The notes under the pieces were generated by a model that was not told the DNA's origin, made no database searches, and saw only the letters and a list, made by a program, of their open reading frames with translations. 32,621 nt of DNA from Anaerolineae bacterium. GTDB taxonomy: Bacteria > Chloroflexota > Anaerolineae > S140-20. The stretch is from positions 1-32,621 of the forward strand of contig JALUTT010000105.1 of assembly GCA_027021705.1 (NCBI GenBank), read 5' to 3'. Shown in pieces: positions 25,795-29,678 of this stretch (the first letter of the stretch is position 1; each line of letters begins with the position of its first letter). The translations under genes were made by a program, and so were the position numbers.

Positions 25795-27036
25795 TTACGC
25801 CAGGGTTGCGCAAGCTCGGTCTAGGGCGGCCAGCACCATCTCCACCCCCTCCGGCTGGATGATGAGGGGCGGGAGGATGAGCATTGTGGCGGGGAAGTTG
25901 TTGGCGAAGTTGGCGATGACGCCTTGGCGGGCCAGGGCAGCGGTGAAGCGCATGCCGTAGGAGTCGTCGGGCAGCTCCAGGCCGATGAAGAGCCCCCGCT
26001 GGCGGATGTCGCGCACCAGGTCGGGGTAGCGGCGCTGGAGCCGGGCCAGCCCGTCGGCGAACTGGGCGGCCATCGCCTGCACGTGCTCCAGGAAGCCGGG
26101 CTCGGTGATCTGGTCCAGCATCGCCATGGCCGCGACGCAGCCCAGGTCGGCCCCGCCGAAGGTGGAGAGGTGGCTGAAGGGTTCCCGCTCGAAGAAGTCG
26201 TTGAGATGGGGGCGGTAGCAGGTGGCGGCCATGGGGTAGACGCCGCCGCTGAGCCCCTTGCCCATCACCAGGATGTCGGGCACGACCTCCCACTCCTCGA
26301 TGGCCCACATCCGCCCGGTCCGGCCCAGCCCTGTCTGCACCTCGTCGAGGATGAGCTGGGCGCCCCGCTCGTCGCACAGTTGGCGCAGGCGGGGATAGTA
26401 GTCGTCGGGGGGGATGAGGACGCCGCCGACGGCGGGGATGGTCTCCAGGATGACGGCGGCCGTCTGGTCGTCCACCATCTCCTCCATCGCGGCGATGTCG
26501 CCGAAGGGGACGTTGTAGAAGCCGGGGGGGATGGGGCCGAACTTGCTCTTGAAGAAGTCGCTGCCGGCGGCGAGGGCGAAGCCGGTGTGGCCGTGGTAGC
26601 CCCGGCGGGCGGAGATGATCTTGGGCCGCCCGGTGTAGGCGCGGGCCAGCTTGATGGCGATGTCAATGGCCTCGGCGCCGCCGGAGGCGAAGGTGGTGTA
26701 CTGGATGTCGCCCGGCGTCAGGTCGGCCAGCCGGTGGGCCAAGGCGGCCCGCTGCTCGCTCATCAGCAGGTGGTCGCCCACGTCGAGCTCGTCCAGGGCT
26801 GCCTTGACGGCGGCGACGACGCGAGGGGGCCGGTGGCCCAGGTTGAAGACACCGCCGCTGGTGCGGCAGTTGATGTAGCGGTTCCCCTCCAGGTCGTAGA
26901 GGTAGATGCCCTCCCGTCGTCCCGGCACGATGGCGGCGTCCAGGGCTTTGTAGACGGCCACGCGGCCCGAGGAGACGTAGGTCGCGAACTCTTCGATAAC
27001 CTCCGCTTGAGGCTTGCGTCCGATGAAACGGGACAT
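25795..27036 (-). CDS. Class III PLP aminotransferase (putrescine/ornithine/PigE-like)
   Basis: SGGAEAID, GYHGHT, LILDEVQTGLGRTG, PLP lysine in MGKGLSGG, STFGG. Confidence 0.9.
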   Translation of the reverse strand: MSRFIGRKPQAEVIEEFATYVSSGRVAVYKALDAAIVPGRREGIYLYDLEGNRYINCRTSGGVFNLGHRPPRVVAAVKAALDELDVGDHLLMSEQRAALAHRLADLTPGDIQYTTFASGGAEAIDIAIKLARAYTGRPKIISARRGYHGHTGFALAAGSDFFKSKFGPIPPGFYNVPFGDIAAMEEMVDDQTAAVILETIPAVGGVLIPPDDYYPRLRQLCDERGAQLILDEVQTGLGRTGRMWAIEEWEVVPDILVMGKGLSGGVYPMAATCYRPHLNDFFEREPFSHLSTFGGADLGCVAAMAMLDQITEPGFLEHVQAMAAQFADGLARLQRRYPDLVRDIRQRGLFIGLELPDDSYGMRFTAALARQGVIANFANNFPATMLILPPLIIQPEGVEMVLAALDRACATLA

Positions 27037-27075: not shown

Positions 27076-27357
27076 CTACCGTGATGCCGATGCGACAGGA
27101 CGCTCCAGAATGGTGATTTGGACCTGGTATCCCAGTCGTGAGAGGAAGGATTCACAGTCTTCCCAGGTGATCCCAAAGGCTCTCACGTCTGCCAGGCCGA
27201 GGCGGCTGACAATATCCCGTAGTGTCTCGAAGTCTTGTTCCTCGAAGTCTCCTTCCATCATCACCTGCTCTGCCCAATCTACAAGCTCTTCCAAAGTGAT
27301 ACGATGGAGGAGATAGTCCTTCAGTTTCTCGGCTACTTCTCGTCGGGTAATCTTCAT
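27076..27357 (-). CDS. Small acidic helical protein, candidate immunity/antitoxin
   Basis: 93 aa, D/E rich, ITLEELVDWAE pattern; GGAGG RBS; ATGA overlap with the upstream gene; lower GC than flanks. Confidence 0.7.
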   Translation of the reverse strand: MKITRREVAEKLKDYLLHRITLEELVDWAEQVMMEGDFEEQDFETLRDIVSRLGLADVRAFGITWEDCESFLSRLGYQVQITILERPVASASR

Positions 27358-27614
27358 TGTTCCCCTCCTTGGAGCTTGATGTGCCCCTTGTCCACCGGAT
27401 ATTTCTCGTGTATTTCCACCAAATGGCCTTCTTCATCGTAGATTTCCTGATAGAACCGGATGGTTTGCTCAGAAGCGTCTACCTCTTTGACATAACGGGC
27501 CTTCCAACCTCGAAGGCCGAGGACTTCGTAGAAGTAGCGGCGTCCTCCGTTAGGCAGCTCCTCCCACGATCCGAATTTCTTCTCGTTCCTCCTGCGTTTG
27601 CGTTCGATGTCCAT
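27354..27614 (-). CDS. Small beta-rich protein, candidate ribonuclease toxin
   Basis: 86 aa from ATG 27614 (GAGGAG RBS); LPNGGRRYF...RYVKEVD...QEIYDEEGHLVEIHEKYP. Confidence 0.7.
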   Translation of the reverse strand: MDIERKRRRNEKKFGSWEELPNGGRRYFYEVLGLRGWKARYVKEVDASEQTIRFYQEIYDEEGHLVEIHEKYPVDKGHIKLQGGEQ

Positions 27615-27657
27615 GCTTGGGCTCCTCGGACCGCTCACCGACGCCTACGATTACAAA

Positions 27658-29208
27658 CTACAGAGGAATGTTCCCATGCTTCTTGGGCGGGTTGCTGTCC
27701 CGCTTGTTCTGGAGCATCTCCAGCCCGTTGATGAGGCGGGGCCGGGTCTCGTGGGGCTCGATGACGTCGTCAATGTACCCCCGGCCGGCGGCGATGTAGG
27801 GGTGGGCGAACTGCTCCCGGTACTGCTGCACCAGCTCCCGCCGCTTCGCCTCCGGGTCCTCGGCCTCGGCGAGCTCCCGACGGAAGATGATGTTGACCGC
27901 CCCCTCCGGCCCCATCACGGCGATCTCGGCCGAGGGCCAGGCCAGGTTCAGGTCGCCCCGGATGTGCTTGCTGCTCATCACGTCGTAAGCGCCTCCGTAG
28001 GCTTTGCGGGTGATGACGGTCAGCTTGGGCACGGTCGCCTCACAGTAGGCGTAGAGGAGCTTGGCCCCGTGGCGGATGATCCCGCCGTGCTCCTGGCCGA
28101 CGCCGGGGAGGAAGCCGGGCACGTCTACGAAGGTGATGATGGGGATGTTGAAGGCGTCGCAGAAGCGGACGAAGCGGGCGGCCTTGACCGAGGCGTCAAT
28201 GTCCAGGACGCCGGCCAGCACGGCCGGCTGGTTGCCCACGATCCCCACGCTGTGCCCGCCCAGTCGGGCGAAGCCGACGACGATGTTCTGGGCGTAGTGC
28301 TCGTGGATCTCGAAGAACTTCCCTTCATCTACGATTAGCCGGATCACCTCTTTCATATCGTAGGGCTTGCTGGGGTCGTCAGGAACGATGGTGTCCAGCT
28401 GCTCCTCGGTGCGGAGGGGGTCGTCGGTGGTGGGGACGAAGGGGGGGTCCTCCATGTTGTTGCTGGGTATGTAGCTGAGCAGTTCCCGAACCAGGAAGAG
28501 GGCGTCGGCCTCGCTCTCGGCGGCGATGTGGGAGACGCCGCTCTTGGTGTTGTGGGTCATTGCGCCGCCCAGCTCCTCGAAAGTGACCTCCTCGTGGGTG
28601 ACCGCCTTCACCACATCGGGGCCGGTGATGAACATGTAGCTGGTGTTCTTGACCATAATGATGAAGTCGGTGAGGGCGGGCGAGTAGACGGCCCCGCCGG
28701 CGCACGGTCCCATGACGACGCTGATCTGGGGGACGACGCCGGAGGCCAGGGTGTTGCGCAGGAAGATGTCGGCGTAGCCTCCCAGGCTGACGACACCCTC
28801 CTGGATGCGGGCACCGCCGGAGTCGTTGAGCCCGATGACGGGAGCGCCGTTCTTCAGCGCCATGTCCATAATCTTGCAGACCTTCTCGGCGTGGACCTCG
28901 CTGAGGCTGCCCCCGAAGACGGTGAAGTCCTGGGAGAAGACGTAGACCAGCCGTCCGTCAATGGTCCCCCAACCGGTGACGACGCTGTCGCCCAAGTACT
29001 TCTTCTTGTCCATCCCGAAGGCCGTTTCCCGGTGGACGACGAACATGTCGAGTTCGCGGAAGCTGCCCTTGTCCAACAGCAGGTCAATCCGCTCACGGGC
29101 GGTGAGTTTGCCTTTGGCGTGCTGCCGCTTGATGCGCTCCGGGCCGCCCCCCAGGCGGGCCTTCTCCCGGAGTTCCCGCAGCCGTTGAATTTTCGGATCC
29201 AGGCTCAT
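27658..29208 (-). CDS. pccB: Acyl-CoA carboxylase carboxyltransferase (PccB/MmdA-type)
   Basis: [43 protein letters not shown]-terminal KKHGNIPL. Confidence 0.92.
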
Positions 29209-29678
29209 TGTCTGCTCCCACTGGTAATGGCTTGATCAAGAAGGGGTGCCCGTTTTTCTGACGACGTGCTTCCCCGCAGGAGCCAGAGAGCTCCCGCGAT
29301 CACCAGGACGGAGTTGAGGGCGGCCAGGGGCCAGCGCTGGCGGGCGGCCTCGCTCTGGTCGAAGACCAGGTGGTTGATCCAGATGTGCAGGTGGTAGAGG
29401 CCGATGAGCAGCAACGTGAGCCGCCGCCCCCGGGGCCAAGCGCGCCAGAGCACCAGCCCTAGGCCCAGGAAAAGCCCTCCCCAGACGAGGCTGCTTCCCA
29501 TCAACAGCCAGGGGGAGAGGGCGAAGGGAAGCTCTGGCAACGTGCGGGCCTGATGAAAGGCCAGGCCCGCACGGATGAGGTTCACACCTCCTCCTAGGAA
29601 GAACACCAATAGGGCGAGGATCGTTACGCGCCGACGGCGGGAGGAGGGAGACGGTTGGGCGTCCCGGGGAGGCATCAC
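29205..29678 (-). CDS. Hypothetical membrane protein, about 4 TM helices
   Basis: Four hydrophobic segments; 4-bp overlaps with both neighbours. Confidence 0.65.

Follow-up and report, generated by a model that had tools for sequence, protein, structure and literature searches.

Two overlapping small genes lie between two metabolic genes

The DNA analysed here, called the window throughout, is a stretch of 32,621 nucleotides (nt) from an Anaerolineae bacterium (contig JALUTT010000105.1), and the subject of this study is a pair of small genes, gene 1 and gene 2, on its minus strand at positions 27,076 to 27,614. Gene 1 (27354..27614 with its stop, minus strand) reads from 27614 down to 27357, with a TGA stop at 27354-27356, and encodes 86 amino acids (aa) from an ATG. 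Its product, the putative effector or toxin, is predicted to consist of a basic N-terminal helix and a six-stranded antiparallel beta-meander. Gene 2 (27076..27357 with its stop, minus strand) reads from 27357 down to 27079, with its stop at 27076-27078, and encodes an acidic protein of 93 aa with four predicted helices, the putative neutraliser of gene 1 (antitoxin- or immunity-like). Gene 1 ends and gene 2 begins within the same four bases, ATGA (27354..27357, minus strand), an overlap which implies that the two genes are translationally coupled. An in-frame GTG further upstream, at 27638, would give a gene 1 product of 94 aa; the 86-aa form is taken to be right because homologues begin at the same Met. 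Both genes appear to have a strong Shine-Dalgarno site, GAGGAG (27622..27627, minus strand) 7 nt 5' of the gene 1 ATG and AGGAGG (27364..27369, minus strand), within the 3' end of gene 1, 6 nt 5' of the gene 2 ATG.

Outside the module, the pair is flanked by an acyl-CoA carboxyltransferase gene of the mmdA/pccB family (27658..29208, minus strand; pccB below), 43 nt upstream of gene 1, and by a class-III aminotransferase gene (25795..27036, minus strand), 39 nt downstream of gene 2. The carboxyltransferase matches TIGR01117 mmdA, a family that includes PccB, at 3e-261 and with 867.6 bits, which is below the curated cut-off of 998.8. The pair is embedded in a same-strand array of metabolic genes, and a search around it revealed neither a sigma-70-like promoter nor a terminator on the minus strand, and no flanking repeat that was convincing. 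In 200-nt windows the G+C content (GC) is 0.48-0.53 over the pair versus 0.68-0.72 in the adjacent genes; the pair as a whole has a GC of 0.523 and the remainder of the window 0.663. A preliminary description of this DNA, made from the letters alone, had reported two small genes of 86 and 93 aa after pccB, coupled by an ATGA overlap and lower in GC than their flanks, the first with its own ribosome-binding site and start. The open reading frames (ORFs), their translations and the 43-nt gap confirm this layout, the GC values and the GAGGAG site agree with it, and the sequence motifs that it quoted are all present (ELPNGGRRY, YVKEVD and EIYDEEGHLVEIHEK in gene 1; ITLEELVDWA in gene 2). Directly 5' of pccB, an ORF at 29205-29678 (minus strand, 157 aa) contains hydrophobic stretches and has no NCBIfam match at E<=1e-10.

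Both proteins belong to large, conserved and unnamed families

Scans of Pfam, NCBIfam, PADLOC and PHROGs gave no match for the gene 1 or gene 2 protein, and PDB sequence-profile searches with both proteins returned chance rows only. The sole row of the family scans, to MerR (E 0.052), was judged to be chance as well. Pfam contained no colicin D, RelE or immunity match even at E<=10 and no helix-turn-helix (HTH), ribbon-helix-helix (RHH) or AbrB match, and an hhalign comparison of gene 1 with gene 2 showed no relation between them. Four peptide motifs of the two proteins were not found in the literature searched, a set without most subscription journals. Neither protein has a family entry or a solved relative, and the pair was previously unnamed and its folds uncatalogued.

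Both families are large. In a collection of 5.8 billion proteins, gene 1 has 1707 clusters at 90% identity and gene 2 has 797, and the best matches, 65-82% identical, come from Chloroflexota, KSB1, Thermodesulfobacteriota and others. HMMER over all 1.84 billion representatives recovered 361 representatives related to gene 1 at E<=0.001, the best 150 of which are 53-173 aa long. Relatives of gene 1 are encoded in 278 genome stretches from a set with one genome per species (185,579 species); 80 of these loci were kept, and the counts on pairing, spacing, neighbours and GC given below refer to them. At least 18 named phyla are represented among them, as are two archaea, one a Methanoperedens and the other an Aenigmatarchaeota metagenome-assembled genome (MAG). 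Across these loci, identity to the proteins of the window is 60-82% for gene 1 and 44-79% for gene 2, so that gene 1 is the more conserved. The size of the families argues that the genes are real and probably under selection. Near-invariant residues of gene 1 include R25, Y27, Y41, K43, E49, T51, Q56, E67, H69, K71, P73, D75 and H78, and W28, G54, D57, F61, L75 and G76 are invariant in gene 2. The charge of gene 1 is concentrated in its N-terminal helix (+3.5 over residues 1-16), the protein as a whole being near-neutral with an isoelectric point (pI) of 6.8 (family median 8.1), and gene 2 is acidic (pI 4.7, charge -7.4). Five gene 2 homologues of 93-94 aa (P0134, P0135, P0138, P0142 and P0145) carry JGI names like 'cobyrinic acid a,c-diamide synthase' and 'arsenate reductase-like glutaredoxin'; these names look like spill-over from an ArsA/CbiA-type ATPase gene that lies downstream in loci L001, L002, L009 and L013.

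Gene 2 follows gene 1 at all loci examined

Gene 2 was found directly 3' of gene 1 and on the same strand in 80/80 loci from other genomes, and the same pair was present in nine further loci, six from metagenomes and three from genomes of the same class. The expectation of the preliminary description that homologues would co-occur in this order at varied loci was thereby borne out, and the pairing is far beyond chance. Twenty-three loci have the ATGA overlap of the window (spacing -4), 14 have a gap of 9 nt and 7 a spacing of -1, and in 76 of the 80 the spacing does not exceed 13 nt; among the exceptions are L013 (215 nt) and two loci with a nonsense codon within gene 1. The 74 ORFs neighbouring the pair upstream and the 70 downstream are varied, with housekeeping genes among them, and none of them represents a conserved third gene. 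Among the neighbours are toxin-antitoxin (TA) genes (PemK twice, ParE, HigB, HicB, RelB-like, PIN twice, UPF0175, DUF433 and DUF2283), restriction-modification genes (HsdM, Type ISP and Eco57I), one SIR2_2 gene, four recombinases or integrases and one insertion-sequence DDE transposase.

Disrupted alleles were seen in gene 1 only, in 2/80 loci versus 0/80 for gene 2. In L039 (4001-4266), from the cultured Neomoorella stamsii DSM 26217, a single nonsense codon replaces the conserved E49 of gene 1, and in L079 (466-720) a single nonsense codon replaces the conserved E44; in both loci gene 2 is intact and the rest of gene 1 is well conserved. The near-invariant H69 is changed to Tyr (IYEKY) in L006:2272-2514 (= G045:C255) and in P0395, which may represent an inactivated allele. 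Decayed remnants of further copies were also observed: L066:4500-6400 and L068:8056-8223 hold gene 2 fragments, and at L098:3001-3174 the C-terminal half of gene 1 is joined to the C-terminal end of gene 2. The L066 remnants sit in a small TA island beside a HigB/HigA-like pair.

Two kinds of fusion were found. Fusions of gene 1 and gene 2 in a single ORF are rare, being represented by P0373, P0395, P0396 and P0397 (metagenomes; 173-228 aa; 1-2 members each). Three of the four have a degraded HEKYPxDxGH motif, and they could be real fusions or sequencing errors. The second kind is a metagenomic locus, L090 (1293-4839), in which the genes for an SLFN/AlbA_2 protein, a 276-aa protein, a 244-aa protein and a Type II methyltransferase (4e-198) follow one another. 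The 276-aa protein, whose cluster has 70 members, joins an N-terminal domain to a C-terminal gene 1 beta-domain that has no basic helix; its N-terminal domain gave no family match and no PDB sequence match. In the 244-aa protein, residues 1-78 form a gene 2-like domain, and this is joined to an entire Type II restriction endonuclease (PADLOC REase_II, 4e-45). Such an arrangement was recovered at full length in one locus only.

The pair appears to have spread horizontally

In the window's own genome the pair is present in a single copy. At the protein level, gene 1 was detected in 14 of 301 genomes of the same class, the window's own included, and in none of three genomes of the same family (completeness 91, 86 and 64%). 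The DNA homology of 29 relatives to pccB stops at the pccB stop codon; an empty insertion site could not be defined, as pccB and the aminotransferase gene are not adjacent in the 30 relatives searched. The GC of the pair is lower than that of its flanks in 62/80 loci (mean 0.487 vs 0.527). It also tracks the GC of the host (r = 0.86), so that most copies have probably resided in their hosts long enough for their composition to ameliorate.

A tree of the joined pair was built from 77 rows, with L009, L036, L039 and L079 excluded for missing starts or nonsense codons. Phylum labels change 33 times on this tree, where the minimum is 17 and the mean for shuffled labels 53, and the Methanoperedens pair is nested among bacterial pairs. 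MAGs that carry the labels of different phyla share near-identical pairs (end branches 0-0.07) in L016/L023, L007/L011/L019 and L074/L076, which reflects either very recent transfer or binning or labelling error. As judged from these sequence comparisons, the pair is probably a horizontally transferred, self-contained cassette with a patchy distribution across phyla.

Structure prediction suggests a tight heterodimer

AlphaFold2 models built on the family alignments had a predicted local distance difference test score (pLDDT) of 89.5 for gene 1, with a helix at residues 3-14 followed by six antiparallel strands, and of 89.8 for gene 2, with four helices and a small sheet formed from its ends. 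Together with the charges given above, the models agree with the preliminary account of a first protein that is beta-rich with a basic N-terminus, to which we add a near-neutral body, and of a second that is acidic and helical. Foldseek at E<=0.001 returned nothing from the PDB for either model and nothing from BFVD for gene 1. For gene 1, the fold searches rank generic beta-meanders highest, OspA and Rhs shells for example. Among 48,161 chains, the one ranked first for gene 2 is ImmD, which inhibits the colicin D tRNase; this match falls below the reliability bar of the tool. The Foldseek matches of gene 2 with XRE, HigA and HipB all have E>1, with template-modelling (TM) scores of 0.27-0.41. 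The ESM Atlas yielded unnamed clusters only for gene 1; for gene 2 it also gave weak structural matches, with a portion of an Imm33-domain protein (TM 0.67) and with a portion of a 3-dehydroquinate dehydratase protein.

A multimer model, which the preliminary description had proposed as a check, passed. The gene 1-gene 2 complex scored 0.81 in three runs, whereas the best of 3 controls scored 0.02; the mark for passing is reached by 116/157 solved complexes and 2/215 mismatched pairs, counts that are approximate here, where our own alignments were used. The runs share at least 95% of their contacts, and the pLDDT of the partner is at least 88. The predicted interface comprises residues 9, 12-13, 29, 31, 33-37, 39, 41, 43, 51, 54, 56, 58, 60, 67, 69, 71-72 and 78 of gene 1, among which A39, Y41, K43, T51, F54, Q56, I58, E67, H69, K71 and H78 are near-invariant, and residues 30-31, 33-38, 43, 47, 51-52, 55, 57-58 and 60-62 of gene 2, among which E30, M33, M34, F38, R47, R52, D57, V58, F61 and G62 are near-invariant. 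In the model, gene 2 docks onto the face of gene 1 that carries conserved His, Glu and Lys residues. Off the interface, R7, N10, E11, R25, Y27, E49, E57 and D75 of gene 1 are near-invariant. These models predict that the two proteins bind each other as a tight heterodimer.

The pair resembles a toxin-antitoxin or small defence module

We consider it about an even chance (probability roughly 0.5) that the pair is a cassette of an unnamed family behaving like a type II TA system or a small defence module. The basis of this reading is the genomic behaviour of the pair and its predicted complex, both computed in this analysis. The two proteins would be made together by way of the overlapping stop and start codons, with gene 1 as the presumed effector and gene 2 as its neutraliser. 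The solvent-facing side of the gene 1 sheet (Y41, K43, T51, Q56, E67, H69, K71 and H78) may be a substrate-binding or catalytic surface, and the acidic four-helix gene 2 protein, for which ImmD is the closest structural analogue, would counteract gene 1 by covering that face. Release or loss of gene 2 would then free gene 1 and lead to growth arrest, for example in addiction or abortive infection. Because His, Glu, Lys and Thr residues lie on an open sheet and the protein has a basic helix and a partner resembling an RNase inhibitor, the most likely activity of gene 1 would be that of a metal-independent RNA endonuclease, or else RNA or ribosome binding. Toxicity, the RNA target and the trigger are all inferred. 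The nonsense alleles confined to gene 1, the H69Y change, the higher conservation of gene 1 and the opposition of an acidic gene 2 to the basic gene 1 helix fit the assignment of gene 1 as the effector, from small counts.

Several observations weigh against this interpretation. Neither by structure nor by sequence was a significant relative of known function obtained for gene 1, and the suggestion of RNase activity comes from residue types and their position on the modelled sheet alone. No DNA-binding domain for autoregulation was found for gene 2 in Pfam or by Foldseek, and an identity of 60-80% across phyla appears unusually high for TA families. No gene 1 homologue was present in 72,556 plasmids, 50,697 phages or IMG/VR. 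The share of TA, restriction-modification and mobile-element neighbours is a raw count without a control, and the asymmetry of 2 versus 0 disrupted genes is too small for significance. The gene 1-gene 2 fusions and the L090 variant would suit a docking pair no less than a TA pair. In the models, the conserved face of gene 1 is the predicted interface, so that its conservation could reflect binding alone, as in an obligate non-toxic heterodimer, and single-layer beta-sheets (OspA) are the best fold rows of gene 1, as might be expected of a protein that needs a partner to cover its sheet.

The last two points lead to the main rival, which we regard as clearly less probable than a TA-like cassette though the best of the alternatives. 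Here the two proteins would form a non-toxic obligate heterodimer in which each needs the other to fold, the helices of gene 2 covering the gene 1 sheet, and the complex would have an accessory regulatory or stress role, for example by binding a conserved cellular partner or a nucleic acid through the basic N-terminal helix. The coincidence of the conserved residues of both proteins with the predicted interface, the resemblance of gene 1 to single-layer sheets, the very high conservation across phyla, the natural single-ORF fusions, the lack of any DNA-binding antitoxin domain among those searched for and the position of the pair in a same-strand metabolic array with no sigma-70-like promoter of its own are all consistent with such a heterodimer. 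Other features run counter to it: the patchy spread across phyla and domains, the low GC and the variable flanks are typical of selfish or defence cassettes rather than of accessory regulators, TA, restriction-modification and recombinase genes are common as neighbours, nonsense alleles occur in gene 1 only, and further near-invariant residues of gene 1 (R7 to D75, listed above) lie off the interface.

The preliminary description had itself gone further than a TA-like cassette, taking gene 1 for a BECR-fold tRNase tip related to those of contact-dependent-inhibition (CDI) toxins and the pair for a polymorphic toxin and its immunity protein living as a solo module. The part of this proposal that stands is that of a self-contained cassette with TA-like genomics, namely strict pairing, coupling, low GC, patchy spread and a passing complex model. 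Its other part, a detached polymorphic-toxin cassette with a BECR-fold tRNase akin to colicin D or CdiA-CT tips as gene 1 and an ImmD-type immunity protein as gene 2, now looks improbable. In its favour are the gene order, with the would-be toxin ahead of its immunity protein, a tentative likeness of the gene 2 fold to ImmD and a helix followed by an antiparallel sheet in gene 1, a layout that Zhang et al. 2012 (PMC3482391) give for the BECR core. The conserved T51 stands at the start of strand 4, where the same paper notes a conserved S/T, and PMC9086364 states that BECR members are often recognisable by structure alone. Against it, fold searches with the gene 1 model revealed no BECR protein among the matches listed (50 each in Foldseek-PDB, VIA-wide and the VIA second look), and the Pfam, NCBIfam and PDB searches described above found no sequence match for gene 1, nor at E<=10 any colicin D, RelE or immunity family in Pfam or any relevant family in NCBIfam or PADLOC. 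The hhalign probability for gene 1 against the HigB-like toxin of L066 was 0.1%. The motifs given for Tox-ColD in PMC3482391 are [KH]K, Hxx[ED], [ST] and [TS]xxK; by eye on column conservation, gene 1 has K12-K13 and T51, and apart from this KK the motifs are absent: the helix lacks a His, and neither Hxx[ED] nor [TS]xxK occurs. No homologue was seen as the C-terminus of an RHS or CdiA protein: the best 150 of the 361 matches do not exceed 173 aa, and none of 9 longer proteins has a trafficking domain. These 9 proteins (176-279 aa) consist of four with junk-like N-terminal extensions, three gene 1-gene 2 fusions and two with a 212-aa N-terminal domain of no known family. The sequences are also conserved rather than polymorphic; a conservation of 60-82% across phyla is the opposite of what polymorphic toxin tips display and therefore counts against a CDI tip. 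Finally, the ImmD match of gene 2 lies under the reliability bar.

Least probable of all is a portable docking pair, in which defence systems would use both domains to couple or control effectors and the free small pair would be a minimal or regulatory form: L090, where a 276-aa protein ends in a gene 1 beta-domain and the adjoining gene couples a gene 2-like domain with a restriction endonuclease, is its evidence, but this architecture was recovered at one full-length locus and could be a secondary capture, and 80/80 genome loci hold the plain small pair without an adjacent conserved effector.

If gene 1 is a toxin, the cassette would represent a new TA or defence family with two uncatalogued folds, present in at least 18 phyla of mostly uncultured bacteria, reaching into archaea and invisible to Pfam, NCBIfam, PADLOC and PHROGs. 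The unusually high conservation suggests that the target and the partner interface are very constrained. In a bolder version of the TA-like interpretation, which we put forward as unlikely, gene 1 would be the first member of a structurally new class of small toxins aimed at RNA, with a helix, a six-stranded meander and a His/Glu/Lys/His face, kept in check by a four-helix inhibitor resembling ImmD. The pair would in that case link, in evolution, the immunity proteins of colicins with chromosomal TA or defence cassettes, and defence islands would have reused its domains to control other nucleases, as in L090. Under that version, the high conservation in bacteria and archaea would point to a universal target such as the ribosome or tRNA. 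The ImmD-like partner and the restriction-enzyme fusion in any case offer concrete hypotheses on how inhibitor domains move among bacteriocin, TA and restriction systems, and both proteins, at less than 95 aa and with confident models, are easy to study. Should the pair be a non-toxic heterodimer, it would still be a widespread unnamed protein pair that merits a family entry.

Comparison with known systems

One of the closest known systems is the colicin D tRNase domain with ImmD (PDB 1v74, 1tfk). For gene 2, no Pfam family was matched at E<=10 and the PDB profile search did not return 1v74 or 1tfk. Like CdiA-CT/CdiI systems, for example that of K. pneumoniae 342 (PDB 6cp9), the pair has the would-be toxin first and the immunity protein second, and both proteins are small. 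It also shares with polymorphic toxin systems a putative immunity gene immediately downstream, in 80/80 loci. Unlike those systems, its sequences are not hypervariable over at least 18 phyla (gene 1 60-82%, gene 2 44-79%), and gene 1 was not found as the C-terminal tip of a large secreted protein among the best 150 of 361 matches and the 9 longer proteins, an absence that is weak evidence.

In type II TA modules such as higBA, hicAB and brnTA, the toxin gene comes first. The pair differs from type II systems in that it matches no TA family in Pfam, NCBIfam or PADLOC and in that its conservation across phyla is unusually high. In agreement with the preliminary description, no HTH or RHH family was matched in Pfam, NCBIfam or PADLOC, so that the presumed antitoxin differs in this respect from many type II antitoxins, in which such a domain is common though not universal. 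In other respects it resembles toxin-first type II systems: the two genes are small, co-directional and translationally coupled, they form a strict pair at numerous unrelated loci and appear horizontally spread, TA, restriction-modification and recombinase genes are frequent neighbours, direct binding of the two proteins is predicted, and the first protein is more conserved than the second.
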